From Candidatus Collierbacteria bacterium (GTDB lineage Bacteria; Patescibacteriota; Microgenomatia; UBA1400; JACPES01): a stretch of 64,000 bases of DNA. Where the stretch lies: NCBI GenBank assembly GCA_016183365.1, contig JACPES010000005.1, positions 5,895-69,894 on the forward strand. Direction: 5' to 3'. The notes below the pieces were generated by a model. It was not told the DNA's origin, made no database searches, and saw nothing but the letters and a program-made list of their open reading frames with translations. The position numbers and the translations under genes were made by a program. This document shows, piece by piece, positions 3,498-62,266 of the stretch (positions within the stretch are counted from its first letter, which is position 1; every line of letters begins with the position of its first letter).

Positions 3498-4220
3498 GTG
3501 GCATATCACTGTATGGACAATCAAATGCTTATCAAGCGATATCTTAATTCTCTCCGCCAATCCGGCAAATCCATTCTGACTCTCTCTGCTTATGCCACTG
3601 ACTTGAAGCAATTCTCTACTGTAATTTCTCCAACCCCCCTTACCCTTTTAACCAATCTTAAACTAACAACCAACAACCAACAACTTATTTCCCGCTTCTC
3701 CCCCAACTCCCGAGTCCGCAAGCTTACCACCATCCGCGAATTTTTAAAATGGTGTTTTATCAAAGGCTACTTAAAAAAAGATTTATCAGGGATTATAAAA
3801 CCCGTCCGCCGGATAACTATCTCCCCGGCTAAATCATTATCAACTTCCCAATTTTACCGTCTCCGTTCCAAAGCCGATGTTAAAGAAAGGCTGCTATTAG
3901 AACTAATTATTAACATAAATCTAAAACTATCAGCCATCGTCAAATTAAAAATGAAAGATATTACCCCTCTTTTCCTCCGTTCCTGCGGAGCAGGATCCCG
4001 CTTTGTGGGACAATCCTTGGACTACTATCTGGCCCAATTCCCCCGCGGTCCCAAAAGCTATTTATTGGCCAACAAATTCAACCGGCCGATGTCAGTTAGA
4101 ACCTTAAGCTCTATATTAAAAAATTTATCCCGCCGAGCCGGGGTCAAACACGGTACTTTTAGGAATCTGCGGGCCATATATTTTGCCAGTCAAGAAAGGA
4201 CCCGATCATATAAACGATGA
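3498..4220 (+). CDS. tyrosine recombinase/phage-integrase-family protein, divergent XerC/D-like
   Basis: N-terminal SAM-like motif (IKRYLNSLRQSGKSILTLSAYATDLKQF) and a C-terminal region alignable to the integrase catalytic domain, but the active-site R and the terminal Y-motif are not clearly conserved. Confidence 0.45.
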   Translation: MAYHCMDNQMLIKRYLNSLRQSGKSILTLSAYATDLKQFSTVISPTPLTLLTNLKLTTNNQQLISRFSPNSRVRKLTTIREFLKWCFIKGYLKKDLSGIIKPVRRITISPAKSLSTSQFYRLRSKADVKERLLLELIININLKLSAIVKLKMKDITPLFLRSCGAGSRFVGQSLDYYLAQFPRGPKSYLLANKFNRPMSVRTLSSILKNLSRRAGVKHGTFRNLRAIYFASQERTRSYKR

Positions 4221-13614: not shown

Positions 13615-16170
13615 TTATAACGAACATTTTGAGTATCCACAAGAGTAACAAGTGCTGCACCCACTCTCGGAAGTCATTGCCGCTCCGCATTCCGGACAAT
13701 GGCCGTCGGCCAAATCCTCGGTGATCCGCCGTCTTTCAACCTGATATGCCCTTTGGGACAACGGCGTAATCTTCATCTGACTTTGCATCAGGCGTTGAGA
13801 TTGTTGATTGTTTTTCTCATCTTTCACATCCGCGGCAGTTTTTAATATTTGATTTTCTCTTGATCCGTCGCGATAGACGGTGATGCCTTTGCATCCAAGT
13901 TTCCAAGCGAGTAAATAAGCTTTTTCTACGTCTTTGACTGTGGCGGCACGGGAAAAATTAATGGTCTTGCTGACAGCGTTGTCAGTATATTTTTGAAACG
14001 CGGCCTGCATTTTAACGTGCCAGTCGGGAGAGATTTGGCGGGCGGTGCGGAAGATAGAAGATAAAATAGTCGAATGGTTAAGAGTGTTAAGAGTGTTAGG
14101 ATTGTTATCTACCCGATAACCATCTTTACCATCTCCACCATCTTGCCATCTTTCTATCTCTTTCTTCGCTTTTTCATAATACTTATTCGTATACCTCAAC
14201 CCTTCTTTCTCCACCACGTTTTTTGTATATTCCAAAGCAAAGTATGGTTCTATCCCCGATGAACAACCGGCAATCATGGAGATCGTCCCTGTCGGGGCGA
14301 TAGTTGTTATCGCCACGTTACGCACTTTTCGTCTGCGGCCAAACGGATTCTTGACGCTATTGAAATACGACTGTTTCCAGAGGGGGAATTCCGCCTTTTC
14401 TTTGGATAACTTCTCGCTCTCGTCCCAACTGATTTGCTGAATAAATTTCATGATCGATTCAGCTAATTTTATTCCTTCATCGCTGTCATAGCTTACGCCT
14501 AATTTAACCAACATATCCGCCCAGCCCATCACCCCAAGACCAATCCGCCGGAGTTTATGTGCCATATCGGCAATCTGTGGAATGGGATAGGTTGAGGCAT
14601 CTATGCCGTCGTCAAGAAAGCGGACCGCGGTGCGGATAACCTCTTCAAGACGGGACCGGTTAATATTGTCCAGAACACTCTGAAAACTCTGAAAGCCAGA
14701 CTGTCGGATAATCGGAGAATCGGAATGCCAGATTTTCTGGCTTTCCGGACCCCCGAGTTTTCCGAGTTTTCCGGAATCTTCCCAGAATGGTTTAATCACA
14801 AACTTCGCCAGATTTATGCTACCAAGGTTGCAAACGTCAAAAGGAAACAGAGGCTGTTCACCACATACATTTGTCGCATCTATCCGCCATTTTTTGATTA
14901 GAGGGTTATATTTATTGATAGTATCCAGATAAATCATCCCCGGGTCTCCGGTTAAGTGGGCTAAATTGATCATCTCATTCCATAGCCTCCGGGCCGAAAT
15001 TTTTTGGACCGTTGAGTCGTCGCGAGGATTAACCAATCCCCAGTCGGAATTTTTTTCTACCGCACTCATGAATCTATCAAAAGCGCCGACAGAAATATTG
15101 AAATTGCTAATTTCTCCGTCAACGGATTTGGCGCGGATAAATTCAAAAATATCCGGATGGTCAACGTTTAGGATCCCCATATTGGCGCCGCGGTGTTCGC
15201 CGCCCTGCATCACAATTTGGGTTTCGGCGTCAAACGCTTTCATAAAATTAATCGGACCGGAAGATAAGCCTCCGGAACGGACCGTATCGCCGCGGGGACG
15301 CAAATGAGAAAAATTAAAACCGGTTCCGCCGCCCATTTGATGGATCAGCGCCGCCCATTTGACGGCGTCGAAAATCTTCTCGATTGAATCCTCAACCGGT
15401 AAAACAAAACAATTGGCCAAAGATCCGTTCTGCTTATTTCCTGCCCCCCGGAAATAACACCCGGCCGGAACAAATTCAAAAAAGGTCATAATTTCCAGGT
15501 ACTTGTCCCACCAGTTATGTCTGGAAAGGCCAGGCCTTTTCAAAAAAGGCCTGGCCTTTTTTGATATCTTTTGTTCTACTTCGGCTTTCTCTGTTACAAC
15601 CACAGCGTCTGCGACGCGCCTCATTGCCTCCATGGGTGTTTCGATCACATTCCCCTCTTTATCTTTCCACAAATATCGTTTGGCCATGGCGGCATAGGCG
15701 TTATCCGACATACCAAGGCGAGAAGTGTCTGATAATTGAGAAGTACCAGATACTTCTCGTTGGGCTGCGCGCCGGTTCCGATAAAGAATGTAGGCCTGGG
15801 CCGCATCTTGGTGTCCGGCGGCCAGCAACACCTGTTCGACGATATCCTGAATTTCCTCGACTGTCCACTGATTATGACCGTTGGAACGAATCAGGGTATC
15901 CTCGACGATTTTGGCGAAGCGCTCCGCCTCTTTCCACAACGAAGATTGTTTGTCGGCTTTTTGTCGGGGAACTTCAGTCTCGGCGGCCCGACGGGCAATT
16001 TCGTCAACTCCGGTGATTTGGGAGAATTTTTTTCTTACTTGGGAAACCGCCCACAGCGACTGCCAAGCTGCCATGGTAATTTTGCCGCGGTCGTACTTTT
16101 GTTTCCGGCCGTCGCGCTTGAGGATGGTGTAAATTGGCCTATTGGTTTCTCCGGGTTTTTTATTTGACAT
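13615..16170 (-). CDS. nrdJ: class II (adenosylcobalamin-dependent) ribonucleotide reductase with N-terminal ATP-cone
   Basis: ATP-cone start IYTILKRDGRKQKYDRGKI; RNR core motifs (SLANCFVLP, ATNVCGEQ); C-terminal zinc ribbon CPECGAAMTSESGCSTCYSCGYSKC. Confidence 0.85.
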   Translation of the reverse strand: MSNKKPGETNRPIYTILKRDGRKQKYDRGKITMAAWQSLWAVSQVRKKFSQITGVDEIARRAAETEVPRQKADKQSSLWKEAERFAKIVEDTLIRSNGHNQWTVEEIQDIVEQVLLAAGHQDAAQAYILYRNRRAAQREVSGTSQLSDTSRLGMSDNAYAAMAKRYLWKDKEGNVIETPMEAMRRVADAVVVTEKAEVEQKISKKARPFLKRPGLSRHNWWDKYLEIMTFFEFVPAGCYFRGAGNKQNGSLANCFVLPVEDSIEKIFDAVKWAALIHQMGGGTGFNFSHLRPRGDTVRSGGLSSGPINFMKAFDAETQIVMQGGEHRGANMGILNVDHPDIFEFIRAKSVDGEISNFNISVGAFDRFMSAVEKNSDWGLVNPRDDSTVQKISARRLWNEMINLAHLTGDPGMIYLDTINKYNPLIKKWRIDATNVCGEQPLFPFDVCNLGSINLAKFVIKPFWEDSGKLGKLGGPESQKIWHSDSPIIRQSGFQSFQSVLDNINRSRLEEVIRTAVRFLDDGIDASTYPIPQIADMAHKLRRIGLGVMGWADMLVKLGVSYDSDEGIKLAESIMKFIQQISWDESEKLSKEKAEFPLWKQSYFNSVKNPFGRRRKVRNVAITTIAPTGTISMIAGCSSGIEPYFALEYTKNVVEKEGLRYTNKYYEKAKKEIERWQDGGDGKDGYRVDNNPNTLNTLNHSTILSSIFRTARQISPDWHVKMQAAFQKYTDNAVSKTINFSRAATVKDVEKAYLLAWKLGCKGITVYRDGSRENQILKTAADVKDEKNNQQSQRLMQSQMKITPLSQRAYQVERRRITEDLADGHCPECGAAMTSESGCSTCYSCGYSKCSL
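14671..14790. repeat. ~120-bp palindromic TIR element, in-frame within nrdJ-A
   Basis: CAGAACACTCTGAAAACTC...TTTCCGAGTTTTCCGGAA; same family as the copies in nrdJ-B, nrdJ-C, the two PBP genes and the 60530..62266 membrane-protein gene. Confidence 0.75.
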
Positions 16171-16198
16171 TATCTAGATAGAGCATATAATAAATTTA

Positions 16199-16945
16199 TT
16201 AACTCGTTTGGGATGGACGCTTGCGTCGGTTCCGACGGGTTTTTTCTTGCCAAAATCTTGTCTTGATCTGTTTCCATTTGATCACTCTTTCGGAAACAAT
16301 TTTAGTTCTAATTATTTGATAGAAAACGTTATCCTTTCCTGTCTGCGCCCATAACACGCTCCCGGCCACCATATCAGCAACATTAACCAGCGGTTCCGTT
16401 TGACTATCAACATGAACCGGCGATAACGGCTCGTCCAATAGACTAGTTAATACTTGATTAAATTTGTCTTGATCTATGGTTCTTTGAAAATGGCGGTCGA
16501 GAACGACGTGTTTAATCTGATGTTGATAGTATAAAAGACAATCTTCAAGCAGCAACCAGCAAAGAAGGGCAAAATTCTCCGGAGAATCGGTTATGCTTTG
16601 ATTTTGTTTTTCAACGATTAAAACAAAAATCTCTACGTCTTGAGCAGCCAATTTTTCCAGAAATTTTTTCTTAGTTCTGTCGCCGGCTCGATAAAACTTG
16701 ATTTCCGGCGGATTACTCTTGGCGTAATGTTTCCTGATAATTTTAGTCATGGATTTAAGTCGCTGGGGTGTTTGAGTTGATATGGCAGCTACAACCACAG
16801 CCGGATCCCGGGGATCGGGTAAAGTCCCGGATTCATCCAGATAAACAGTTCTGCCTACTCGCCTGTATTCAACCGCGGTGGGAAGCCGAGGAAATTTCCG
16901 CCCGTCGCGCTTGAGGATGATGGAAATTAACTTTTGGGATTTCAT
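16199..16945 (-). CDS. DUF3800-like protein whose first ~20 codons duplicate the nrdJ ATP-cone start
   Basis: YLDESG motif near the N-terminus (DUF3800 hallmark, recalled from memory). The N-terminus ISIILKRDGRKF and ~35 bp of DNA are near-identical to the nrdJ-A 5' end. Confidence 0.4.
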   Translation of the reverse strand: MKSQKLISIILKRDGRKFPRLPTAVEYRRVGRTVYLDESGTLPDPRDPAVVVAAISTQTPQRLKSMTKIIRKHYAKSNPPEIKFYRAGDRTKKKFLEKLAAQDVEIFVLIVEKQNQSITDSPENFALLCWLLLEDCLLYYQHQIKHVVLDRHFQRTIDQDKFNQVLTSLLDEPLSPVHVDSQTEPLVNVADMVAGSVLWAQTGKDNVFYQIIRTKIVSERVIKWKQIKTRFWQEKTRRNRRKRPSQTS

Positions 16946-17238
16946 TTGGTATATTGATTTATATTATGCCAGCTGGAATTAATGGATCTGAAGAAGATCA
17001 GGGAATATCGCGTCAAGAAACAGACCAGCCCGAAACATCCGAATCGGCAAGAACGTCGTTCCTAACATACATGGCATTTGGGATGCTGGCAATAAATGGG
17101 GCAATTGAAGTCGCCAATGGAATAGCCATGGATGACGGATCGAAAATGTTCTACGGAGGTGTTGACATATTAATTGCTGCTTTGGCATATTTTGCTACTC
17201 CGCATAGATACCGACGTGTTTAGTAGGTGTATCTTTTT

Positions 17239-19302
17239 TTAGACGCTGCATTTTGACCAACCGCAGCTATGGCAAGTGACACAACCATTTTCGGCAATTA
17301 CCGCAGCTCCACACTCCGGACAGACGGCGGCGGGACCGGAGCCGGGACGCAAAGGCAAATGTTGAATGGCAGAATTTTCATTCGTCATTCGTAATTGGTC
17401 ATTCGTCATTGTATCCTTAGCAAGATTCAAAACCTGATCTTTTTTTGAGCCGTCTCTATAAATAGTAATCCCCTTGCAGCCGAGTTTCCAGGCCAGAATG
17501 TAGGCTTTTTCTACATCTTCAACAGTAGTATTATGGGGGAAGTTAATGGTTTTGCTGATTGAGTTATCAAAATGTTTCTGCCAGGCGGCCTGAATCTTAA
17601 CGTGCCACGATGGAGAAATCTCATGGGTGGTAACAAATATCTTATAAAACCAGCCGGGCAAACCTTCGATGGATTTTAATCCGTATTCCGCGACGTGTTT
17701 CAGAACACTCGGAAAACTCGGAGTTTCAGATAAATCAGAAAGTCGGAGAATCGGAAAATCAGAACTTCTGATCTTCTGATTTTCTGACTTTCTGACATTC
17801 CGGCTTTCCGAGTTTTCAGAGTTTTCCGAAATGACTCTCTTTAGTTCTTCTTCAAACACCGGATCGACCATATATATTTCCTTCGTCGGCCTATTTTTTC
17901 TATCGTCTTCAAAGAATGTTCGTCTTTTTGTGACCAACGAAAAAATCGGCTCTATCCCCGAAGTAGTGTCGGCGAGCATCGCCGTAGTCCCAGTGGGGGC
18001 AATCATGGTAGTAGCGCAGTTTCGCATCGGATGCTTGTCAAAATAAATACTCCTGTCCCAGTTGCCGAAGTTGCCGCGGACTTTGGCCAGTTTCATACTC
18101 TCATTTTGGGCAGTTTCCTGGATGAACTTTGCCAATTTTTCCGAAAGCTCCTCCGCTTGACTAGAGTTGTACGGAATACCTAATTTAACCAACATATGGG
18201 AAAATCCCATCACGCCTAATCCAATGCGGCGGTTGCCGTTTTTGACCATCTGCTCAATTTCGGGAATAGCATAGGTATTAACTTCAATCATGTCGTCGAG
18301 AAACCGGACCCCGAGACGGACGCTCTTTTCTAAGTCTTCCCAGTCAACTCCATTCATTGTTTCCTGTTTCTTGCTTCTTGCTTCTTTTATATGATTCTGC
18401 AAGCAAATACTTGTCAAATTGCAACTCTCGTAGGGCAAAAGTCCGATTTCGCCGCAGGGATTAGTCGCTTCTATCCGTCCAATTTGGGGAGTGGGGTTGT
18501 CGCGGTTAAAAGTATCCAAAAACATCAAACCCGGATCGCCGGTTTGATGGGCGTGGTCAACGATCATTTTGAATAATTTCCGGGCTTTTATCTTTCTCAC
18601 CGGCTCCCCGGTTCTGGGGTTAATTAAATTCCACATCTTATCCGCCTGAACCGCTTTCATAAATTCGTCGGTTACTCCAACGGAAATATTAAAGTTCTTG
18701 ATAGTGCCATCCTCGTCTTTAAGGCGAATAAAGTCTTCAATGTCGGGATGGTCGGCGTTTAAAATCCCGATGTTGGCGCCTTGGCGTTTGGCGCCCTGAA
18801 GAATTTTTGACAGGGCGGCGGAATAGGCGGCCAGAAAGTCCACCGGACCGGAGGCGGCGTTGGGGACATTTTTGACTTTGTCGCCGCGGGGACGGATGCG
18901 GGAAAAATTAAAGCCGGTGCCGCCGTTATTTTTATGGACGACGGCAGCGTCACCCAAGGTTTTGAAAATCGACTGAATGTTGTCTTCGACCGGAAGAACG
19001 AAACAGCTGCTCAATTGGCCGGTGCCGCCGGGGTTACCGGCCTCAAACATGGCCTTGCCGGCGCATACGAATTTGAAATTCACCATCCGGTCGTAAAAGG
19101 CGACGGCAATCTCGGCAACTTTCCCGTTTCCGCCATTCCAATTGACTTCGGCTTTAGCCATATGTCTGGCGACCCGCCACAGCATCTCTCCCGGAGTTTC
19201 GATGACTTTTCCGGACATATCGGTGCGGAGATAACGCTTCTGGGAAATCTTTATGGCAGTTGGTGATAGTTTTGGTTCGATGATAGTCATATGTATAGAC
19301 AA
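17239..19302 (-). CDS. nrdJ: class II ribonucleotide reductase paralog (no ATP-cone)
   Basis: SSCFVLP, ATNPCGEIGL, C-terminal CPECGAAVIAENGCVTCHSCGWSKC. Carries a ~135-bp in-frame palindromic element. Confidence 0.85.
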   Translation of the reverse strand: MSIHMTIIEPKLSPTAIKISQKRYLRTDMSGKVIETPGEMLWRVARHMAKAEVNWNGGNGKVAEIAVAFYDRMVNFKFVCAGKAMFEAGNPGGTGQLSSCFVLPVEDNIQSIFKTLGDAAVVHKNNGGTGFNFSRIRPRGDKVKNVPNAASGPVDFLAAYSAALSKILQGAKRQGANIGILNADHPDIEDFIRLKDEDGTIKNFNISVGVTDEFMKAVQADKMWNLINPRTGEPVRKIKARKLFKMIVDHAHQTGDPGLMFLDTFNRDNPTPQIGRIEATNPCGEIGLLPYESCNLTSICLQNHIKEARSKKQETMNGVDWEDLEKSVRLGVRFLDDMIEVNTYAIPEIEQMVKNGNRRIGLGVMGFSHMLVKLGIPYNSSQAEELSEKLAKFIQETAQNESMKLAKVRGNFGNWDRSIYFDKHPMRNCATTMIAPTGTTAMLADTTSGIEPIFSLVTKRRTFFEDDRKNRPTKEIYMVDPVFEEELKRVISENSENSESRNVRKSENQKIRSSDFPILRLSDLSETPSFPSVLKHVAEYGLKSIEGLPGWFYKIFVTTHEISPSWHVKIQAAWQKHFDNSISKTINFPHNTTVEDVEKAYILAWKLGCKGITIYRDGSKKDQVLNLAKDTMTNDQLRMTNENSAIQHLPLRPGSGPAAVCPECGAAVIAENGCVTCHSCGWSKCSV
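17701..17835. repeat. ~135-bp palindromic TIR element, in-frame within nrdJ-B
   Basis: CAGAACACTCGGAAAACTCGGAG...TTTCCGAGTTTTCAGAGTTTTCCGAA; translated as ENSENSESRNVRKSENQKIRSSDFPILRLSDLSETPSFPSVL. Confidence 0.8.
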
Positions 19303-19332: not shown

Positions 19333-21405
19333 TCATACCGAGCATTTACTCCATCCGCATTCCTGACAAGTTGCGCATCCATCCATCAACGTCAGTTCTC
19401 CCCTGCATTCCGGACACACTTCGTCAGGATTTCCTTTAACCGTTAACCTTTGACCTTTGACCTTCCCCACATTGAGCACTTGCTCTCTCCGGCAGCCGTC
19501 GCGATAAACCGTAATTCCTTTACATCCGGTTTCGAAAGCTAATAAATAAGCGTTTTTAATATCGTCGACTGTGGCCGAATTGGGCAAATTAATAGTTTTT
19601 GATACCGCCGCATCTGTATATTTTTGCCATGCGGCTTGCATTTTAATATGCCATCTGTAGGGAATTTCCATGGAGACACGGAAGATATCTCTTACTTCTT
19701 GCGGAATTTCTTTAATATTTTGGCAACTGCCGGACACAGAGACTCTCTCCAGAACACTCGGAAAACTTGGAACATCAGATAAATCAGAAGATCGGAGTTT
19801 CAGAGAACCAGAATTTCTGGTCGTCTGATTGTCTGATTTTCTGATTTTCCGGCTTTCAGAGTTTTCAGAGTTTTCTGAAATTACACCAACTGCTTTTGAA
19901 AATTCTTCGTTAACTTCTAGCAAACTCGTCTTCCCCAAATCTAAAATATTTTCCCTTCTGTACGCCAAGGCAAACAACGGTTCTATTCCACTGGAACAAC
20001 CGGCGATTATGGAAATAGTCCCGGTCGGGGCGACGGTGTTGACCGTTGAATTACGCATATGAGTGAAACCTTGCTTCTGCCAAACGCTATCTTCGAAAGC
20101 CGGGAAAGAACCACGACTTCTAGCCAGTTCCACCGAGGCGTCGCGGGCAGTATCATGGATAAATTTAGCGGTTTTTTTCGCTAGTTTCAACGCCGCTTCC
20201 GAGTCGTAACGAACCCCCAGTTTAATCAACATGTCCGCCCAGCCCATGACGCCGACGCCGATTTTTCTGGTGGTCAGGGCCATTTTTTTTAATTGGGGAA
20301 TCGGATAGTCGCAGAGGTCGATAACGTTGTCCTGAAAGTGAACCCCGAGACGGACGACCTCTTCTAATCGTTTCCAGTTGATTCTTTCCAGAACACTCGG
20401 AAAACTCTGAGAACCAGAGAAATCGGAATATCGGAGGATCGGAGAATCAGACGATCCGGCCTTCTGACTTTCTGATTTTCTGATATTCCGGCTTTCCGAG
20501 TATTCCGAGTTTTCTGAACTTACAAATCTTCCCAGGTTTATATTCCCCAAGTTGCATGACTCATACGGTAATAGGGCTTGTTCGCCACACGGGTTAGTTG
20601 CTTGATATATCCCTAATTTTGGCGTCGGACAATATTTATTCATGACATCTAAAAACACTAATCCCGGGTCGCCGACTTTCCAGGCCTGGGTGGCGATTAA
20701 ATTCCATAACTCCATCACGTCGATATCTTTTTCGGTGGCGCCGTCGTTGGGGTGAAATAAATGAATAGTCCCCTTTTTGGCTTTGACCTTTTCCATAAAT
20801 TCGTCTGTAGCCCCGACGCTGACGTTAAAATGGTAGAGCGTGGACGGATCTTCTTTGGACATAATAAATTCAACGATGTCCGGGTGATCAACCTTCAATA
20901 CTCCCATCAGGGCGGGGCGGCGGGCGCTGGCCTCGGCGATGGTGGCGGCGGAATAATTAAATAACCGCAGGAAAGAAACGGCGCCGGAACTGATGCCGCC
21001 GGTTGATTCCACCAAAGAACCCCGCGGCCTAAGATTTGTCAGCGGGATTCCAATCCCGCCGCCGGTCCGTAAAATCAGGGCCGCGTTGCGCAGTTGATCA
21101 TAAATATCTTCCAAGGAATCGGATAAAGGCAAAACATAGCAAGCCGAAAATTGTTTATGCTTGCGGCCGGCGTTAAGGAGGACCGAGCCGGAAAGATATT
21201 CCAAATTCGACATGGCCCGATAAAAATCATCGGCGACTTTTTTTATCTCCTGATCCGCTTTATCTCCCTTTACTCTTAGATATTTTTTGTCAGCCGACGC
21301 GATTAAGTTAGCTACCCGTCGGAACATCTGATCAGGGATTTCTTTTGGCAAAAGATAGCCGCGTTTTTTCAAAACTACCAAAGCGTTATCGGATAAATTT
21401 GTCAT
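19333..21405 (-). CDS. nrdJ: class II ribonucleotide reductase paralog (no ATP-cone)
   Basis: SACYVLP, ATNPCGEQAL, C-terminal CPECRGELTLMDGCATCQECGWSKC. Carries two in-frame palindromic elements. Confidence 0.85.
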   Translation of the reverse strand: MTNLSDNALVVLKKRGYLLPKEIPDQMFRRVANLIASADKKYLRVKGDKADQEIKKVADDFYRAMSNLEYLSGSVLLNAGRKHKQFSACYVLPLSDSLEDIYDQLRNAALILRTGGGIGIPLTNLRPRGSLVESTGGISSGAVSFLRLFNYSAATIAEASARRPALMGVLKVDHPDIVEFIMSKEDPSTLYHFNVSVGATDEFMEKVKAKKGTIHLFHPNDGATEKDIDVMELWNLIATQAWKVGDPGLVFLDVMNKYCPTPKLGIYQATNPCGEQALLPYESCNLGNINLGRFVSSENSEYSESRNIRKSESQKAGSSDSPILRYSDFSGSQSFPSVLERINWKRLEEVVRLGVHFQDNVIDLCDYPIPQLKKMALTTRKIGVGVMGWADMLIKLGVRYDSEAALKLAKKTAKFIHDTARDASVELARSRGSFPAFEDSVWQKQGFTHMRNSTVNTVAPTGTISIIAGCSSGIEPLFALAYRRENILDLGKTSLLEVNEEFSKAVGVISENSENSESRKIRKSDNQTTRNSGSLKLRSSDLSDVPSFPSVLERVSVSGSCQNIKEIPQEVRDIFRVSMEIPYRWHIKMQAAWQKYTDAAVSKTINLPNSATVDDIKNAYLLAFETGCKGITVYRDGCRREQVLNVGKVKGQRLTVKGNPDEVCPECRGELTLMDGCATCQECGWSKCSV
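19751..19880. repeat. palindromic TIR element copy 1 in nrdJ-C
   Basis: CCAGAACACTCGGAAAACTTGG...TTTCAGAGTTTTCAGAGTTTTCTGAA. Confidence 0.8.
20391..20520. repeat. palindromic TIR element copy 2 in nrdJ-C
   Basis: CCAGAACACTCGGAAAACTCTGAG...TTTCCGAGTATTCCGAGTTTTCTGAA. Confidence 0.8.
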
Positions 21406-33829: not shown

Positions 33830-36355
33830 ATGGCGAAGACAAAACCAAGGAAGAAGGTAGAAAGTAGAAGAAAGAATGATAAGAATAAATCACTATTATT
33901 GTGGCAAAAATTTAAAAAATTTGCCTTTACTTTTGAATTGACACCGGAGAATATCCGGAGATCGTGGACTCGAAAAGGGCTAAGGGCCAAGGGCCAAGGG
34001 CCAAGGGCCAAAACTCGCCGCCGATTTCTTATTTACTCATTAGTATTTATTAGTTTATTCGTAATTATTAGTATTTATTTATTACGGGATATTCCCTCTC
34101 CAACCAAACTCGCTTCCGGCAACTTTCCGGTTTCGACTCAAATTTTCGACCGCAACGGCCAACTGTTGTACGAAATTTACGCCGACCAGAACCGGACGCC
34201 GATTAAACTTAAGGATCTGCCGCCGTTTGTCTTGCAGGCGACGATTGCGATTGAGGACAAGAATTTTTACCGGCATTTTGGGATTGATATTTTTGGAGTC
34301 GCCCGGGCGGCGGTGAAAACCCTGACCGGACAGCGGCTGGAGGGCGGATCGACGATTACCCAGCAATTGGTCAAAATGACGCTGTTGACGCCGGAGCGAA
34401 GTTTGAGCCGGAAAATTCGGGAGGCGGCGCTGGCGGTAGCGACGGAAGTTTTATATTCTAAAGATCAAATATTGGAGATGTATTTGAACCACGCGCCTTA
34501 CGGCGGAACGGCTTATGGAATCGAGCAGGCAGCCAAAAGATATTTTGGCAAAAGCGCCAAGGATTTGAGTTTGCCGGAGGCAGCCCTTCTGGCAGGATTG
34601 CCGCAGGCGCCATCAGCGTATTCGCCATTCGGGTCGCGGCCGGAGAACGCCAAACAACGGCAAAAAGATGTGTTGCGGCGGATGAAAGAAGATAGATATA
34701 TCACTTCCCAGGAAGAGAGGGAAACGGAAGAGGCGGTTTTGGAATATTCTACTGCGAATATTCCGATTCGGGCGCCACATTTTGTGTTATGGATAAAGGA
34801 TTTATTGATTGAAAAATTCGGCCAAAAAACAGTAGAGGGTGGAGGATTAAGTGTGACAACAACGCTGGACTTGGCGATTCAAGAAATGGCTCAAGCCAGC
34901 GTGTCAGCCGAGGTAAAAAAACTAAAAAGTTTGCGGGTGGGCAACGGAGCGGCGTTGGTCACCAATCCGGGGACCGGAGAAATTTTAGCGATGGTGGGGT
35001 CAAAAGATTATTTTGATACGGAAAACGACGGCAATGTCAATGTGACAATTCGGCCGCGCCAACCGGGATCCTCCATTAAGCCCGTTATGTACGCTGGCGG
35101 TTTTTCGACCGGAAAACTTACTCCCTCCACTATGTTGATTGATGCGCCGACCTGTTTCAGAGTTCTCAACCAACCGGATTATTGTCCCCAAAATTATGAC
35201 GGTCAGTCCCATGGTCCGGTTCAAATCAGGTTTGCTCTGGGCAATTCTTACAATATTCCGGCGGTAAAATCCCTGGCATATATCGGCCTGGAGGATATGA
35301 TCGCGACGGCGTCGGCAATGGGAATCTCGACTTTTACCGATCCCTCCCGCTATGGTTTGTCGTTAACCTTGGGCGGCGGAGAAGTTACTATGTCCGATAT
35401 GGCCACGGCTTTTGGAACCCTGGCAAATAACGGGGTAAAAGTGCCGCTAAACCCGTTTTTGAAGATAGAAAATTATAGAGGAGAGGTTTTATACCAACGG
35501 ACTACGGAGGAACGACTAAATGATCTTCGGAACACTCAGAATACTCAGAAAGCCAGAGAATCAGACAATCAGAAATTCGGAGAATCAGAGTCTCTGGACT
35601 TCCGATCCTCAGATTCTCTGATAATCCGGTCCTCTGAGTTTTCCGAGTTTTCTGAAATCATCCAGGCTATTCCGGCAGAAGCAGCATACTTGGTCAGTCA
35701 TATTCTCCTGGACAATAACGCCCGGACCGCCGCATTTGGGCCGAGTTCGCAACTGGTAATACCGGGGCAAGTGGTTTCGGTAAAGACCGGAACTACCAAT
35801 GACCTTCGGGACAACTGGACTTTGGGGTACACCCCGGAACGGCTAGTGGCGGTATGGGTGGGAAATAATGATAATAAACCAATGAACCAAGCTCTGGTTT
35901 CTGGCATCACCGGGGCAGCGCCGATTTGGCACAACATCATGAGACAACTGCTATGGAGTCGAAGGCCTATTTGGCCGGAAAGACCGGAAGGGGTGGTCGG
36001 AAAAGATGTCTGCGTTCTGACCGGTCTCTTACCGACGCCAGGAAATTTATGCGATACTCGGCATGAATTTTTCTGGGATAAGTTCTTGCCCGCGAATAAT
36101 TATCCCCTCCAACGGGAGATCTGGATTCGCAAAGATACCGGGACGCCGATTGATCCCAATATTCCGCTGGACCAGCAAGGAGAGTTAGAATTGCAAAACC
36201 ATACGGTTATTTCCGACCCGCTGGTGCCGGAATTCTGTTTGGACTGCGCGTATCCGGTAATTCAGGAGTTAAATCCCGACGGATCGGTGAAAGAGGAGCG
36301 GATCAATTACCCCGGGTCGGTGATTAACACTACGTCATTGCGAGCCCCGCCGTAG
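33830..36355 (+). CDS. class A penicillin-binding protein (transglycosylase + transpeptidase)
   Basis: EDKNFYRHFGIDIFGVARA, GGSTITQQLVK (GT51); SIKP, SYN, KTGT transpeptidase motifs. Contains a ~135-bp in-frame repeat, and its stop codon lies inside a repeat. Confidence 0.85.
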   Translation: MAKTKPRKKVESRRKNDKNKSLLLWQKFKKFAFTFELTPENIRRSWTRKGLRAKGQGPRAKTRRRFLIYSLVFISLFVIISIYLLRDIPSPTKLASGNFPVSTQIFDRNGQLLYEIYADQNRTPIKLKDLPPFVLQATIAIEDKNFYRHFGIDIFGVARAAVKTLTGQRLEGGSTITQQLVKMTLLTPERSLSRKIREAALAVATEVLYSKDQILEMYLNHAPYGGTAYGIEQAAKRYFGKSAKDLSLPEAALLAGLPQAPSAYSPFGSRPENAKQRQKDVLRRMKEDRYITSQEERETEEAVLEYSTANIPIRAPHFVLWIKDLLIEKFGQKTVEGGGLSVTTTLDLAIQEMAQASVSAEVKKLKSLRVGNGAALVTNPGTGEILAMVGSKDYFDTENDGNVNVTIRPRQPGSSIKPVMYAGGFSTGKLTPSTMLIDAPTCFRVLNQPDYCPQNYDGQSHGPVQIRFALGNSYNIPAVKSLAYIGLEDMIATASAMGISTFTDPSRYGLSLTLGGGEVTMSDMATAFGTLANNGVKVPLNPFLKIENYRGEVLYQRTTEERLNDLRNTQNTQKARESDNQKFGESESLDFRSSDSLIIRSSEFSEFSEIIQAIPAEAAYLVSHILLDNNARTAAFGPSSQLVIPGQVVSVKTGTTNDLRDNWTLGYTPERLVAVWVGNNDNKPMNQALVSGITGAAPIWHNIMRQLLWSRRPIWPERPEGVVGKDVCVLTGLLPTPGNLCDTRHEFFWDKFLPANNYPLQREIWIRKDTGTPIDPNIPLDQQGELELQNHTVISDPLVPEFCLDCAYPVIQELNPDGSVKEERINYPGSVINTTSLRAPP
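35526..35662. repeat. palindromic TIR element in-frame within PBP gene 1
   Basis: GGAACACTCAGAATACTCAGAAAG...GAGTTTTCCGAGTTTTCTGAA; translated as RNTQNTQKARESDNQKFGESESLDFRSSDSLIIRSSEFSEFSE. Confidence 0.8.
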
Positions 36356-37292: not shown

Positions 37293-39665
37293 ATGGACAG
37301 AAGGCGCCGCCGCGTTGGTTTTGACGTAGATGTTTTTTCCGGATTCAGGTTATTAGGTAAACCCCTTTATTACTTTCTATTTTTGGCGCTGCCATCCGGC
37401 ATTCTTTTAATTACCAGTCTTGCCGCTAGACTAAAAACTAATTCCCAAAAATATTCAAAAGGGGCCATCAGGAAAACCCGCAAGACTGCCAAACGGCTTG
37501 GTTTTCCAAAAATTGTTATTCCAAAAATTTCATTGCCGCCTATATCGATTTTCTATGCCGCAATTTTTTTATCTATTATTGGCATTCTATGGATGTTTTA
37601 TTTTTATATCTTCAAAGATCTTCCCACCCCTTATGATTTAAAAAAACACCAGCCAAAACTCAGTACCCATATTTTGGACCGCAATGAACAAGAGCTGTAT
37701 AAAATCTATAAGGACGAAAACCGGTCATTGATAAAAATAGATGAGCTCCCGTCATACTTAATTGACGCTACGGTTTCTATCGAAGATAAAGAATTTTGGA
37801 ATCATGCGGGTTTTTCACCCACTGGCATCATTCGAGCAATTTACCACAATTGGTTTATCTCCTTAGCCCTTAGCCCTAGACCCTCGACTCTTGCTACGCA
37901 GGGCGGATCTACCATCACCCAACAGCTAATAAAAAATACATTGTTAACTCCGGAAAAAACTATAAGACGAAAGGTGCGAGAATTAATTCTGTCCGTATGG
38001 GTAGAACGGGTATTTTCTAAAAAAGAAATTTTGGAAATGTATCTTAACGAAGTAAGCTTTGGCGGCACGGCTTACGGAATCCAGGAAGCCTCACAACAGT
38101 ATTTCGGAAAGAATGCCGTCTCCTTATCACTGGCTGAAGCCGCTTTATTAGCCGGTTTACCGGCCGCTCCGACCGCCTATTCTCCTTTCGGAATCAACCA
38201 AGGAAAAGCTAAAGAACGACAAGCCGATGTTTTAAGGAGGATGGCAGAAGACAAAAATATTTCTGCGGAATCAGCGGAAGAAGCCCTAAGGGAAGAACTT
38301 AAATTTTCCCAAAATTCGACCAATATTAAAGCCCCGCATTTTGTGATGTACGTCCGCGACTGGTTGGCTTCAAAGTTTGGAGAGGATATGGTAAACAACG
38401 GCGGCCTTAAAGTTATTACCACTCTTGATCTGGATTTACAGGAATTTGTTCAAAAAACGGTAACTGACGAAGTAGCCAGCCTAAAAAAATTAAAGGTTAC
38501 CAATGGAGCGGCGTTAGTGACTGATCCTAAAAGCGGGGAAATCTTGAGCCTGGTAGGTTCCCAAAATTATTTCGACTTTCAACATGACGGTCAAGTCAAC
38601 GTTGTTTTCCGTCCGCGCCAACCGGGATCGTCCATTAAGCCCATAATGTACGCTGCGGCATTCCAGAAAGGTTTTACCCCGGCCTCGGTGATTCTCGACG
38701 CCCCGATATCTTTTTCAACTCCCGGTTCTAAACCATACAGTCCGGTTAATTACGATGGTAAATTTCATGGCCCGATCCCAATTAGGACCGCTTTAGCCAG
38801 TTCTTACAATGTTCCGGCAGTTAAAGTTCTGTCAACTATCGGAGTTAATATTATGATAGATCAAGGAGAAGCCATGGGGATAAACACCTGGGGCGACAGA
38901 AAAAGGTTTGGTTTATCGCTGACTTTGGGTGGCGGAGAAATTACCATGGCAGATATGGCGGAAGCATACGGAACGATAGCAAATTATGGGGTCTATGTTC
39001 CGCTAAATCCAATACTCAAAGTTGAAAATAGTCAGGGAAAAGTGTTGTTTCAGAAAACTCCGAATAGTCAGAATGTCGGAACGTCAGACAGTCAGACAGT
39101 CGGAAATTCTGATTCTCAGATTTTTCCGAGTATTCCGAACAGGGCTATGCCCGCCGGAGTAGCTTTTCAATTAATTGATATCTTGTCTGACCCGATCGCC
39201 CGAGCTCCGGCATTCGGGACCAGATCAGTCTTAAATATCCCTGGCCATCAGGTGGCGGTTAAAACCGGCACTACCAATAATCTTCGGGACAACTGGACAT
39301 TCGGCTTTACGACTGACTTCGTAGTATCTGCCTGGGTGGGCAATAACGATAATTCTCCGATGAGCTATATTGCTTCCGGAATTACCGGGGCATCTCCGAT
39401 TTGGTCAAGAATTACCCAAGGCATTTTAAGCCAGAGAAAAACTCCGCACGTCTTTCCCCAACCCCAAGATTTAGTGACTATAAAAATCTGCGCTCTAACC
39501 GGACAATTAGCATGCGAAGATTGTCCGGTCCGGGAAGAATTTTTTATTCCCGGGACTGAACCCAAAACCGCCTGCCGTCCGGAGACGATCGATGAAATCA
39601 GACGCAAACAGGAAGAATCAAAAAATAAAGACCGGATTCTGGATGGGGCTGCCTCCAGACGCTAA
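37293..39665 (+). CDS. class A penicillin-binding protein paralog
   Basis: EDKEFWNHAGF, GGSTITQQLIK; SIKP, SYN, KTGT. Contains an ~80-bp in-frame repeat (39061-39140). Confidence 0.85.
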   Translation: MDRRRRRVGFDVDVFSGFRLLGKPLYYFLFLALPSGILLITSLAARLKTNSQKYSKGAIRKTRKTAKRLGFPKIVIPKISLPPISIFYAAIFLSIIGILWMFYFYIFKDLPTPYDLKKHQPKLSTHILDRNEQELYKIYKDENRSLIKIDELPSYLIDATVSIEDKEFWNHAGFSPTGIIRAIYHNWFISLALSPRPSTLATQGGSTITQQLIKNTLLTPEKTIRRKVRELILSVWVERVFSKKEILEMYLNEVSFGGTAYGIQEASQQYFGKNAVSLSLAEAALLAGLPAAPTAYSPFGINQGKAKERQADVLRRMAEDKNISAESAEEALREELKFSQNSTNIKAPHFVMYVRDWLASKFGEDMVNNGGLKVITTLDLDLQEFVQKTVTDEVASLKKLKVTNGAALVTDPKSGEILSLVGSQNYFDFQHDGQVNVVFRPRQPGSSIKPIMYAAAFQKGFTPASVILDAPISFSTPGSKPYSPVNYDGKFHGPIPIRTALASSYNVPAVKVLSTIGVNIMIDQGEAMGINTWGDRKRFGLSLTLGGGEITMADMAEAYGTIANYGVYVPLNPILKVENSQGKVLFQKTPNSQNVGTSDSQTVGNSDSQIFPSIPNRAMPAGVAFQLIDILSDPIARAPAFGTRSVLNIPGHQVAVKTGTTNNLRDNWTFGFTTDFVVSAWVGNNDNSPMSYIASGITGASPIWSRITQGILSQRKTPHVFPQPQDLVTIKICALTGQLACEDCPVREEFFIPGTEPKTACRPETIDEIRRKQEESKNKDRILDGAASRR
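39061..39140. repeat. short copy of the palindromic TIR element in PBP gene 2
   Basis: GTCAGAATGTCGGAACGTCAGACAGTCAGACAGTCGGAAATTCTGATTCTCAGATTTTTCCGAGTATTCCGAAC. Confidence 0.65.
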
Positions 39666-60529: not shown

Positions 60530-62266
60530 ATGATACCTAAATCCTATCAATGGCTTTTGTGGGGTAGTTTTATTTTTTTCCTGGGGGCAATGCTATTGCG
60601 TCAGGAATCGGCAATAACTCAAGACTTAGGCCGGCATTTAAGATTAGGAGAAATGATTGTGGCCGGCGGAGACGAAAGAAAATGCGCGCTGTTTAGCAAC
60701 TGCCTGACGTTTACACACCCCGACTATCTGTTTGTTAACCATCACTGGGGAAGTGAGATAATCTTTTACCTCATCCATAAATGGGCAGGATTTTCCGGAA
60801 TCATCATTTTCAAAGCAATTATTCTGGGGCTGACGTTTTTAATTACAGTTCTCCATGCATCACAGTTTCTGAACACTCTGAAAACTCAGAGAACCGGAGA
60901 TCCAGAGAATCGGATAATCAGAAAATCAGATATCCGACTGTCCGGCGTTCTGAATTTCCGACAATCTGGATTTCTGAGCATTCCGAGTTTTCCGAACCTT
61001 GCCATCGCCGTCGCGCTGACATTTCTCTCCATCCAAATGATGGCCGATCGGCTAACGACCAGGCCGGAAATTTTTGGATATTTGCTGTTCGCGATATTGT
61101 TTTGGGTGTTGGACAGACGTAAAGAGAGATTGCCACGTCATCCCTCGACAAGCTTGGGACTCCTCGCAATGACGGTAACGACCTCCTTGATAATTTTAAT
61201 TTGGGTGAATTTACATATCTCTTTTATTTTTGGCTTGATTTTGGTTTGGATTTGGGCAGGGAGTCGACTATTAACGTCATTGCGAGGGAACGTTAGCGAC
61301 CGCGGCAATCTCCAAGATCGCCATGTCCCGATTTCATCGGGGCTCTCGATGACTCCGGTGGCGATTGCAACTGCGTCTACTATTGCGTCTACTATGATAA
61401 TCATTTTCAACCCTTCCGGCCTCCGCGGCGCCCTAATGCCGCTATCAATTCTCAAGGATTACGGGTACACCGTCGTTGAAAACATGACTCCGTTTTTCCT
61501 TTCTGCCTTTAAGCCTCAACCGGAATATTGGATTTACACCCTATTGTTGCTAACTGTCACTGTTTTATTAATTATTTCCCCAAAGAAACCGCCTCTCTTC
61601 TCTATCTTGACCTTTTATATCTTTTCTATCTTTCCGTTGATAGCCGTGAGGCACTTGCCGTTTTTTGGCTTGACGACGGTACCGATTTTAACCCTGTTGG
61701 TTGCTGTGAAGTTTCGCAAACTTCACAATGATGAAAAGTTTGCGAAACTGCCGATTCTAGTGGCGAGTAGTTTGCTAATCGCGGCGTTGACCAATCCAAT
61801 TCCGCTCGTTTATGGCAAATTGTCACCGATTGGTTTGACAATAGATTCGCGACACAATCAGGCCATTGACTTTGTTAAGCAAAATAATCTTCAGGGGCAA
61901 ATGTGGAACAATTACGATATCGGCAGTTTCCTGGAATGGGCTATCCCTGAACATAAAACCTTTGTCGACGGACGGCCGGAAGCGTTTCCGGTCGGATTTT
62001 TCCAAGATGTCTATATCCCGATGCAAGAGGATAAAACAGCTTGGGATTTGGTAGCAACTAAATACGATATCCAGTGGATATTCGTAGCCCTGACTGACGC
62101 CACCCCCTGGTTTATCAAATGGTGGCAGATGATCCGAGACCATAAAGATTGGCGAATTGTATATATTGATAACTTCAGCGCTGTTTTGGTCAAAGTCGAT
62201 AGTCAGAACAACTTGATTGGACCTCAAGGGAAAACCAAAATTCTGAACATCAATAGTCTGGATTGA
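60530..62266 (+). CDS. polytopic membrane protein, probable GT-C-fold glycosyltransferase
   Basis: More than 10 TM helices and a C-terminal soluble domain. Contains at least three different in-frame repeat insertions (60868-60990, 61276-61353, 61706-61749). Confidence 0.45.
   Translation: MIPKSYQWLLWGSFIFFLGAMLLRQESAITQDLGRHLRLGEMIVAGGDERKCALFSNCLTFTHPDYLFVNHHWGSEIIFYLIHKWAGFSGIIIFKAIILGLTFLITVLHASQFLNTLKTQRTGDPENRIIRKSDIRLSGVLNFRQSGFLSIPSFPNLAIAVALTFLSIQMMADRLTTRPEIFGYLLFAILFWVLDRRKERLPRHPSTSLGLLAMTVTTSLIILIWVNLHISFIFGLILVWIWAGSRLLTSLRGNVSDRGNLQDRHVPISSGLSMTPVAIATASTIASTMIIIFNPSGLRGALMPLSILKDYGYTVVENMTPFFLSAFKPQPEYWIYTLLLLTVTVLLIISPKKPPLFSILTFYIFSIFPLIAVRHLPFFGLTTVPILTLLVAVKFRKLHNDEKFAKLPILVASSLLIAALTNPIPLVYGKLSPIGLTIDSRHNQAIDFVKQNNLQGQMWNNYDIGSFLEWAIPEHKTFVDGRPEAFPVGFFQDVYIPMQEDKTAWDLVATKYDIQWIFVALTDATPWFIKWWQMIRDHKDWRIVYIDNFSAVLVKVDSQNNLIGPQGKTKILNINSLD
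60868..60990. repeat. palindromic TIR element in-frame in the 60530..62266 membrane-protein gene
   Basis: TCTGAACACTCTGAAAACTCAGAG...GCATTCCGAGTTTTCCGAAC. Confidence 0.8.

Follow-up and report, generated by a model that had tools for sequence, protein, structure and literature searches.

A probable mobile cassette of a DUF3800 gene and a predicted small-RNA gene at the duplicated start of nrdJ-A in a Candidatus Collierbacteria genome

A 64,000-nt stretch of a Candidatus Collierbacteria bacterium genome (NCBI GenBank assembly GCA_016183365.1, contig JACPES010000005.1, positions 5,895 to 69,894 of the forward strand; hereafter the window, with positions counted from its first letter) carries a DUF3800 gene between the ribonucleotide reductase genes nrdJ-B and nrdJ-A, flanked by a short direct repeat of the nrdJ-A start. 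The repeat is best read, at a probability of roughly 0.62, as the junction copies left by a mobile cassette of ~0.73 kb (~16164-16894) that would have integrated in the first ~17 codons of nrdJ-A. Such a cassette would comprise the DUF3800 gene, a convergent small-RNA gene and a terminal TTGACA box that doubles as a start codon (ATGTCA). By direct reading of the sequences, the left copy is the native upstream region, ribosome entry site and ATG of nrdJ-A, now driving DUF3800: the window has an in-frame fusion to this start, whereas in relatives DUF3800 begins by stop-restart coupling or at a new ATG. The right copy restores nrdJ-A, with a start codon provided by the cassette end.

All genes of the locus lie on the minus strand, in the order nrdJ-C (19333-21405, a class II ribonucleotide reductase paralogue and the first of a tandem trio), nrdJ-B (17239-19302, Pfam Ribonuc_red_lgC and lgN, without an ATP-cone, forming the left border of the locus), a spacer, an open reading frame (ORF) of 248 amino acids (16199-16945) and nrdJ-A (13615-16170, an intact, ATP-cone-bearing class II enzyme with Pfam ATP-cone, lgN and lgC matches). 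Among the three paralogues only nrdJ-A has an ATP-cone by Pfam. Coordinates and Pfam matches thus confirm the placement of the ORF between nrdJ-B and nrdJ-A in an earlier note on this DNA, which had also reported that the 5' sequence of nrdJ-A is repeated at the start of the ORF. The repeat is real and comprises 47 nt at 81% identity (16102-16148 and 16895-16941, 793 nt from start to start) with a core of 34 nt at 91%; the two 33-mers of that note differ at 3 positions, and their true coordinates, 16102-16134 and 16895-16927, lie 6-8 nt from those first given. On the gene strand the similarity has a sharp end after CGGAAA, where the Lys of ILKRDGRK is encoded, and tapers off upstream; nrdJ-A orthologues begin M-x(3-5)-ILKRDGRK. 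Chance similarity or an assembly chimera would be suggested by the shortness of the repeat and by nothing else: a 24-mer of the core, searched with up to 3 mismatches, occurred at two places only in the 64 kb and gave 0 matches in 100 shuffled sequences, and an identical arrangement of the locus recurred in 10 contigs that had been assembled independently from separate sequencing runs, which rules out an assembly artefact. That reading is refuted, and its residual probability is negligible.

The ORF starts MKSQKLISIILKRDGRKF and later reads YLDESG, so that the ATP-cone beginning and DUF3800-like continuation described earlier hold. It consists of the first 17 nrdJ codons in frame, a linker and a DUF3800 protein. 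The left copy of the native nrdJ-A 5' end (16895-16945, minus strand) covers the ATG and 16 codons, MKSQKLISIILKRDGRK; the junction (16838-16894, minus), FPRLPTAVEYRRVGRTVYL, is a non-conserved linker of 19 residues joining the nrdJ remnant to the DUF3800 core, which runs on the same strand from D37 of the DESG motif to the stop codon (16199-16837). Because no in-frame ATG, GTG or TTG was present between 16945 and the DESG motif, DUF3800 can be produced here solely as a fusion from the nrdJ-derived start, and from the sequence the cassette's own ATG is judged to have been lost at the junction, where no conservation across loci was found. The right copy, the re-supplied nrdJ-A 5' end MSNKKPGETNRPIYTILKRDGRK, occupies 16102-16170 (minus; repeat proper 16102-16148) and starts at ATGTCA.

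The same site is both empty and filled among relatives (individual loci are designated here by L numbers). Three Collierbacteria loci (L120, L121 and L122) keep the order nrdJ-C, nrdJ-B, nrdJ-A, VIT1 and CobA/BtuR with no DUF3800 gene and with a spacer of only 76-120 nt from nrdJ-B to nrdJ-A; in L039 the nrdJ-A start overlaps the stop codon of nrdJ-B. The closest DUF3800 homologues (85-87% identity), in L036 and L038, occupy the same nrdJ-A codons with other junctions. At L036 a new ATG comes after the remnant MITFILKRDGRK, together with a short piece of a different DUF3800 N-terminus; at L038 a longer remnant, MVKFIFKRGGRKQKYHRD, ends in a stop codon with the DUF3800 ATG 3 nt further on. nrdJ-A begins at ATGTCA in both, as it does in the window, and in both the left copy is contiguous with the native spacer between nrdJ-B and nrdJ-A, which is like that of the empty L121 and L122. 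Since the left remnant follows the native spacer and the intact nrdJ-A starts at ATGTCA, the left copy is the native start and the right copy the re-supplied one, and from these alignments the DUF3800 segment is an insertion into the nrdJ-A start. The presence or absence among relatives that the earlier note had proposed as a check does exist, and the two origins it had offered, an insertion that copied its target and a gene fusion, are true together: empty sites and differently joined filled sites attest the first, and the missing in-frame start ahead of the DUF3800 core the second.

Also at L036, the N-terminus MNYFIDQSGKIED ahead of DUF3800 (203-260) looks FIDESG-like, as if the first codons of an earlier and different DUF3800 gene had decayed there, which suggests that one cassette may have been replaced by another through recombination within the conserved IDESG-coding region.

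An immobile origin has been weighed against these loci. In it a further nrdJ paralogue or a local tandem duplication would have left the upstream ATP-cone piece as a relic, fused by chance to a resident DUF3800 gene; duplication is common here, three tandem nrdJ paralogues being already present. Relatives with exactly three paralogues nevertheless have a short spacer between nrdJ-B and nrdJ-A, and the left copy of L036 and L038 follows the native spacer directly and is therefore the start of nrdJ-A itself. The flank architecture moreover recurs at unrelated genes, and the divergence of cassette and flank is decoupled, as described below. This origin is contradicted by these comparisons and is very improbable.

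Decoupling is clearest between L036 and L038, where the cassettes are 96-98.6% identical (synonymous divergence, dS, 0.064) and the downstream nrdJ-A genes 65%. Over the 33-nt block encoding I-x-x-I-L-K-R-D/G-G-R-K the right copies of the two loci agree at 29/33 positions and the left copies at 20/33. From this pattern it follows that the cassette and the adjacent right copy moved between lineages with different nrdJ-A alleles. Spread by homing would give a similar picture: a DUF3800 nuclease would cut cassette-free alleles near the ATP-cone start, break repair would copy the cassette with adjacent sequence from an allele that bears it, in the manner of free-standing homing endonuclease genes of ribonucleotide reductase operons, and the recoded right copy and split left copy would render carriers immune. 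Presence/absence polymorphism at a highly conserved ribonucleotide reductase site agrees with it, as do the many synonymous differences of right copies from native sequence and the cassette with ~50 nt adjacent, which resembles a co-conversion tract in being far more alike between L036 and L038 than the remainder of the gene. In relatives nrdJ-B, nrdJ-A or both contain LAGLIDADG inteins, which are absent from the window copies, so the locus attracts homing elements. Against homing, DUF3800 is the only Pfam match of the protein, which has no known homing-endonuclease domain; other loci have unrelated targets, so that one nuclease specificity would not suffice; and homing does not create the original duplication. 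It is regarded as quite unlikely.

Besides the DUF3800 gene the insert contains two things that the earlier note had not seen: a small-RNA gene antisense to DUF3800, and the start codon that the insert end supplies to nrdJ-A. A sigma-70-type promoter (16164-16191, plus strand; TTGACA at 16164-16169, a 16-nt spacer and TATAAT at 16186-16191; 12/12 consensus positions) points into the 3' end of DUF3800, ahead of a predicted RNA of ~45-50 nt (16198-16250, plus strand) made up of a stem (P1), an internal GGAU/GUUC element, a G.G mismatch, an inner helix (P2) and a tetraloop, then U6. The RNA is convergent with DUF3800, has the long hairpin and U-tract of an intrinsic terminator, and overlaps the last ~45 nt of the DUF3800 gene. 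The nrdJ-A start codon (ATG, 16170-16168) falls within ATGTCA, the complement of the -35 box, and the -35 box and -10 element stand at constant spacing in all related loci.

Conservation of this module was seen at the nucleotide level. The C-termini of homologues end in three types of tail (...NRRKRPSKTS, ...EPAQAPIQT and ...RTGASTHP), which are one conserved nucleotide sequence read in three frames. An alignment of gene ends from 23 genomes had the module in all 23; on the gene strand it reads as an A-run, a variable stem, GAACC, a short hairpin, CATCC, the complementary stem and a TATAAT-like element with TGTCAA at fixed spacing. The window hairpin folds at -21.6 kcal/mol (z -4.6). P2 was paired in 100% of copies with compensatory changes, the covariation score being 0.52 vs 0.30 in shuffled alignments (0/500 shuffles reached 0.52). 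Folding of the two strands gave 83 G.U pairs and a mean of -21.6 kcal/mol for the antisense strand vs 1 G.U pair and -11.8 kcal/mol for the sense strand. A covariance model built from 26 copies had its sole window match at 16179-16255 (plus strand, 70 bits), matched exactly once in 90/98 other sources, always antisense and 3'-adjacent, and had no match in the empty-site loci L120-L122. A search of window positions 15800-17400 against Rfam (cmscan, E up to 10) returned no riboswitch, ribozyme, intron or DUF3800 motif. As no Rfam family matches it, the module is a predicted plus-strand RNA gene of a further structural class of DUF3800-associated RNA.

The variable P1 stem was compared by eye with target sequence for signs of a guide function, and the window gave a 6-nt match (CGACGG) only and L017 none. 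At L035 (1709-1972) an internally deleted DUF3800 gene of 74 amino acids, with its N-terminus kept, runs straight into an intact small-RNA module (57 bits), so the RNA gene can outlast the protein gene. A second, solo RNA module was considered after the nrdJ-B stop codon (promoter-like site 17162-17191 plus hairpin) and rejected (z -0.78 vs shuffles, no covariance-model match).

Family membership of the protein, which the earlier note had left to a profile search, is confirmed: the ORF at 16199-16945 matched Pfam PF12686 with 39.8 bits against a cut-off of 21 (E 9.7e-10, residues 34-198), and Pfam returned DUF3800 alone, with no LAGLIDADG, GIY-YIG, HNH or other known homing-endonuclease domain. 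Its best homologues likewise carry PF12686. There were 217 homologues at E <= 0.001, those with names being from Microgenomates-type Patescibacteria; they are 205-230 amino acids long and start ~8 residues ahead of IDESG, which makes the first ~28 residues of the window protein extra. Residues D37, E38, D120, D150, H152, H178 and D191 were invariant in 29 homologues. The C-terminal motif of the homologues is N-x-A-D (VNVADMVAG), with N in the position of Q in the QxxD motif described for DUF3800; the DUF3800 proteins of type VII retrons are without the Q (PMC7736814). By sequence the protein is a new member of DUF3800, and its RNA a new class among those associated with the family.

An AlphaFold2 model had a mean confidence (pLDDT) of 85.4, with residues 1-30 disordered (pLDDT <50). 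The best PDB matches of the model were archaeal and human RNase HII/H2 (E 8e-6 to 4e-4, TM ~0.5), and retroviral integrase appeared as a weak match (E ~0.02); as modelled, the protein has an RNase HII/H2-like nuclease fold, in agreement with the RNase H-type fold reported for DUF3800 (PMC10910872, PMC7736814). Ratios of non-synonymous to synonymous substitution (dN/dS) of 0.13-0.15 against L036 and L038 place the gene under purifying selection. A Shine-Dalgarno-like motif preceded the DUF3800 ATG in 6/74 loci, and from this and the dependence on the host start in the window we infer from sequence that the gene is without a promoter or ribosome-binding site of its own. The upstream ORF ended -25 to +15 nt from the DUF3800 ATG in 48/74 loci, a raw count for which chance expectation was not computed.

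The flanks of the wider cassette family were compared in 96 loci drawn from one-genome-per-species and metagenome collections, some of them redundant, of which 95 had enough flank (repeat threshold E <0.001). Flanking direct repeats were detected in 39/95, with lengths of 23-209 nt and identities of mostly 86-97%; almost none were perfect. Duplication at the flanks is a general trait of this cassette family at many unrelated genes, a third point that the earlier note had not seen. Coding repeats usually began near the start codon of the downstream gene and extended 9-35 codons into it, and the gene starts repeated include those of atpG (L019), mtnP-like (L027) and mazG-like (L017) genes, named by eye from translated sequence with no family search, and of membrane-protein genes (L099, L100 and L111). 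L040 is a further case of in-frame fusion between a native start and DUF3800. The left repeat ends 0-50 nt ahead of the DUF3800 ATG, where no conserved sequence was found, and the right repeat starts 0-40 nt past the TGTCAA box or includes the box and promoter. The NTG of the box was in frame with an ORF of at least 60 codons in 17/27 loci having any long downstream ORF (p 0.0015), and 10/14 ATGTCAA boxes started such an ORF.

Differences between left and right copies comprised 44 synonymous and 51 non-synonymous changes where 23% synonymous were expected (p 6e-7), a bias to be expected of copies that had evolved in different genomes as functional orthologues. Mutagenesis of the kind caused by diversity-generating retroelements was rejected as their source, as the mismatches, inspected by eye, were mixed transitions and transversions with no adenine bias. 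Movement of cassettes is also evident away from nrdJ: in L090 and L092 a 725-nt unit reaching from 13 nt ahead of the ATG to 10 nt beyond the box has 99.3% identity, but the two cassettes lie on opposite sides of a gene. Cassettes in L017, L018, L071 and L073 are 84-92% identical in unrelated contexts. The window cassette has no terminal inverted repeats; the absence of a conserved left end and the variable repeat length fit recombination and not a ruler-like transposase. A relative was encoded in 0/76 candidate stretches of viral contigs examined for carriage by phages.

Several observations were made around the edges of these cassettes. TGTCAA boxes on the same strand within 400 nt upstream of the DUF3800 core numbered 23 in 73 non-redundant loci vs 9.4 expected (Poisson p 1.3e-4), several having a -10-like element at promoter spacing (window example ~17162-17191), and may be remnants of earlier cassettes. 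An apparent recent indel at the left end of the cassette in L041 vs L043 proved to be an unrelated serine-recombinase element: L041:606-4003 is a 3.4-kb element encoding a 566-amino-acid serine recombinase, set in the 3' end of a tRNA gene directly left of the DUF3800 cassette, and in L043, which is without it, the DUF3800 ATG abuts the tRNA 3' end. A promoter-like motif of ~32 nt, GTGGATAACTCATCCTGAAAGTGGTAAAAT, lies ahead of several genes near cassettes (L090:2838-2870 and 3680-3710; L092:3536-3567 and 3893-3924) and may be a lineage-specific promoter or regulatory box.

Cassettes of different types were also found stacked. Two to four different DUF3800 genes stand in tandem and in one orientation at L019 (atpG), L099 and L100 (membrane-protein gene), and a second DUF3800-type ORF lies beside the family cassette at L031 and L092 (by Pfam at L092, by motif only at L031); of seven extra DUF3800 ORFs tested from L019, L092, L099 and L100, all seven scored above the Pfam cut-off. 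At L019 and L100 an antisense promoter and a structured RNA of its own come after each DUF3800 gene inspected, and between the units of these two arrays stand further copies of the 5' segment of the host gene. Array RNAs at L099 and L019 matched Rfam DUF3800-II (34.4 bits) and DUF3800-IX (27.7 bits), respectively, both below gathering thresholds, in the expected place and on the expected strand. The order of cassettes differs between L099 and L100. By these sequence matches the arrays tie the window cassette to known DUF3800/RNA systems, several subfamilies of which share one way of sitting in genomes.

Arrays and near-identical copies could alternatively be the work of an integrase. DUF3800, with or without its RNA, would then make widely and variably staggered cuts in the start of a transcribed gene, and gap repair would yield long target-site duplications, which would make the cassette a new kind of autonomous transposon. 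DDE transposases and integrases share the RNase H-like fold (the integrase matches being the weak ones at E ~0.02), the arrays are occupied by DUF3800 cassettes only, copies with sharp edges are nearly identical in the window and several loci, and the 725-nt unit of L090 and L092 is discrete, at two different positions. Speaking against an integrase are the spread of repeat lengths (23-209 nt), the lack of terminal inverted repeats and of a conserved left end, and top structural matches to RNase HII/H2 and not to transposases. The right copy in L036 and L038 groups with the cassette and not with the resident gene, divergence between copies is biased to synonymous changes, almost no repeat pair is 100% identical even for recent cassettes, and some duplications take in the cassette's own promoter. 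An integrase is therefore held to be unlikely.

Comparison of sequences demonstrates how the cassette is built and that it was inserted, that the start of the target was duplicated and its native start taken over by DUF3800, and that cassettes move horizontally and form arrays. For the route of spread, about even odds are given to transfer between genomes as a cassette with a short target copy, by homologous recombination of the host. Incoming DNA would be either a circle entering in the manner of a Campbell-type insertion or linear DNA taken up by transformation and joined homologously at one end and illegitimately at the other; it would recombine with the conserved 5' end of the resident gene, and of the two repeat copies one would come from the donor and one from the resident, giving direct repeats of variable length. 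Homologous recombination would account for this variable length, the lack of defined ends, the grouping of the right copy with the cassette, the synonymous-biased divergence, left/right identities that are typical of related strains and never perfect, and the reshuffled arrays. The RNase H2-like protein and its RNA may themselves play a part in integration. For the host, the consequences of the mobile-cassette reading would be that nrdJ-A is transcribed through DUF3800 and against a consensus convergent promoter, and that the first ~13 residues of nrdJ-A are new.

A number of results weigh against the mobile-cassette reading or its proposed route. About 60% of loci have no detectable flanking repeat, and in L083, L099, L100 and L056 even the small-RNA promoter lies within the duplication, a complication for every simple model. 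Left and right copies of the window agree at 30/33 positions, above the match of either to any relative, an agreement that import from a donor, gene conversion and de novo duplication would explain equally well. A cassette-free variant in the same population was sought with the exact DUF3800 and nrdJ-B protein sequences, which gave filled sites only, and exact-protein look-ups found no circular or excised form. Homologous recombination leaves the first capture of a new target copy unexplained, and likewise the fact that the arrays held DUF3800 cassettes only, which hints that the cassette is active in its own integration. The statement that the gene has no promoter of its own is based on few checks (the 6/74 Shine-Dalgarno count, with no family-wide promoter scan). 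Matches of the protein to models of defence proteins (PDC-M04A and DUF3800_VII) were weak (E ~3e-4).

Two further proposals concern what DUF3800 and its RNA do. That they form a toxin-antitoxin or defence-type protein-RNA pair, and are not recombination machinery, is a serious candidate by analogy, at somewhat less than even odds; it is favoured by the 1:1 co-diversification of protein and RNA, the roles of DUF3800 in retrons and CRISPR loci, and antitoxin-like essentiality in Legionella. DUF3800 has been described as the effector of type VII retrons (PMC7736814) and as an accessory protein in some CRISPR loci (PMC10910872, PMC12669027), and a strain-specific Legionella DUF3800 gene scored essential as antitoxins do (bioRxiv 10.1101/2020.10.01.323287). 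That DUF3800 and its cognate RNA are a self-mobilising cassette system free of an integrase is a long shot: the RNase H2-like enzyme, acting on an RNA-DNA hybrid of its RNA or at the start of a transcribed gene, would make a break or primer, the cassette would be copied into the 5' end of an expressed gene with duplication of its start, and integron-like arrays would accrue. If true, this would give a function to the eleven-plus orphan DUF3800 RNA motifs and define a new class of mobile element.

Among known systems, the nearest are the 11 RNA motifs found beside DUF3800 genes (DUF3800-I to -XI; Rfam RF02961 is DUF3800-II and RF02968 DUF3800-IX), several of them with terminators and none with a proposed function (Weinberg et al. 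2017, PMC5737381). The window shares with them a small structured RNA adjoining a DUF3800 gene, in many cases with an intrinsic terminator at its end and in some on the opposite strand, and the pairing of different DUF3800 subfamilies with different RNA structures; unlike them, the window RNA falls outside the Rfam families (E up to 10). The literature searched held no account of DUF3800/RNA modules as promoter-less mobile cassettes with target duplications, and start hijacking, target duplication, start-codon donation and array building by a mobile cassette were not found in it.

Integron cassettes are alike in being ORFs without an evident promoter, expressed from an upstream promoter, with an imperfect palindrome at the 3' end, and in stacking in one orientation in arrays whose order differs between relatives. 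They differ in that no attC R''/R' (RYYYAAC/GTTRRRY) is present at the base of the palindrome here, where a conserved GAACC/GGTTC lies inside the hairpin; the palindrome is instead a predicted RNA gene that has a promoter of its own, it is the wobble-paired strand that is transcribed and ends in a U-tract, and units are split by copies of host-gene 5' sequence and not by attC alone. No integron integrase was among the gene calls viewed, the array neighbourhoods not having been scanned exhaustively. From insertion sequences and DDE transposons the cassette differs in having neither terminal inverted repeats nor a target-site duplication of fixed length.

Phages 21 and e14 integrate in icd carrying a replacement gene end, and Campbell-type insertion leaves a duplication. 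As in those cases, two diverged copies of the target gene flank the insert, one of them element-borne, and the target gene stays intact; here, in contrast, the 5' end is duplicated and not the 3' end, the element is ~0.75 kb and encodes no integrase, and it supplies a start codon while taking the displaced native start for its own gene. With free-standing homing genes and inteins in ribonucleotide reductase genes the cassette has in common a selfish insert at a conserved site, patchy presence and greater likeness than its flanks, and it differs in its RNase H2-like protein, in a target that is duplicated and not split, and in the many unrelated genes hit. Type III toxin-antitoxin systems (ToxIN) and type VII retrons similarly pair a nuclease-fold protein 1:1 with a cognate, co-diversifying small structured nucleic acid. 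The former have a same-strand tandem-repeat RNA upstream of the toxin, where the cassette has a single convergent downstream hairpin with its own promoter; unlike the latter, the cassette has no reverse transcriptase.

The surroundings of the insert were also annotated. The spacer from nrdJ-B to the native nrdJ-A start (16946-17238, minus strand) is, at 293 nt, longer than the 76-120 nt of relatives, and a promoter scan placed a weak promoter-like site in it just upstream of ATG 16945 (16963-16992, minus). A plus-strand ORF of 89 amino acids reported in the spacer by some gene callers (16954-17223) was rejected as spurious, having no Pfam match and no likeness to the ORF at the same place in L037. 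Synteny of the nrdJ trio with VIT1, CobA/BtuR, NUDIX and TPR genes is kept across Collierbacteria (L120-L123). On the window's contig, a few kb upstream of nrdJ-C, small genes at L001:991-3548 gave weak YafQ-toxin and PIN-domain matches, which suggest that the nrdJ neighbourhood may hold other toxin-antitoxin-like genes. A palindromic repeat element of ~135 nt has at least 7 copies in the window (17680-17835, 19750-19884, 20386-20518, ~14671-14777, 35526-35658, 39046-39139 and 60865-60996) that are 70-84% identical; a 156-nt stretch with the copy in nrdJ-B folds at -67.6 kcal/mol. Four copies lie inside nrdJ-A, nrdJ-B and nrdJ-C and, as the reading frames stay open, are in frame, the nrdJ-B copy encoding SENSENSESRNVRKSENQKIRSSDFPILRLSDLSETPSFPSVL. 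The element resembles the Rickettsia palindromic elements that are tolerated inside ORFs.

The mobile-cassette reading makes several predictions: that the small RNA is made, that it binds DUF3800, that gain of the cassette is RecA-dependent, and that excision by recombination between the copies would leave nrdJ-B and nrdJ-A adjacent with a hybrid start, MKSQKLISIILKRDGRKQKYD.... For annotation, short N-terminal gene fragments and 'fusion' ORFs beside DUF3800 genes would be scars of a junction, and the gene downstream may have an annotated start that comes from the cassette. The pairing of DUF3800 genes with many unrelated companion RNAs has been unexplained since 2017, and no function or behaviour was proposed for it in the literature searched. 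From this locus and ~100 related ones, the pair would be, in Patescibacteria at least, a compact, horizontally moving cassette without an evident promoter of its own, which occupies the first codons of host genes (in many cases housekeeping genes) and uses their expression signals. Damage to the host gene would be repaired by the duplicated start and the cassette's own start codon, and different DUF3800/RNA types would accumulate in arrays at one spot.

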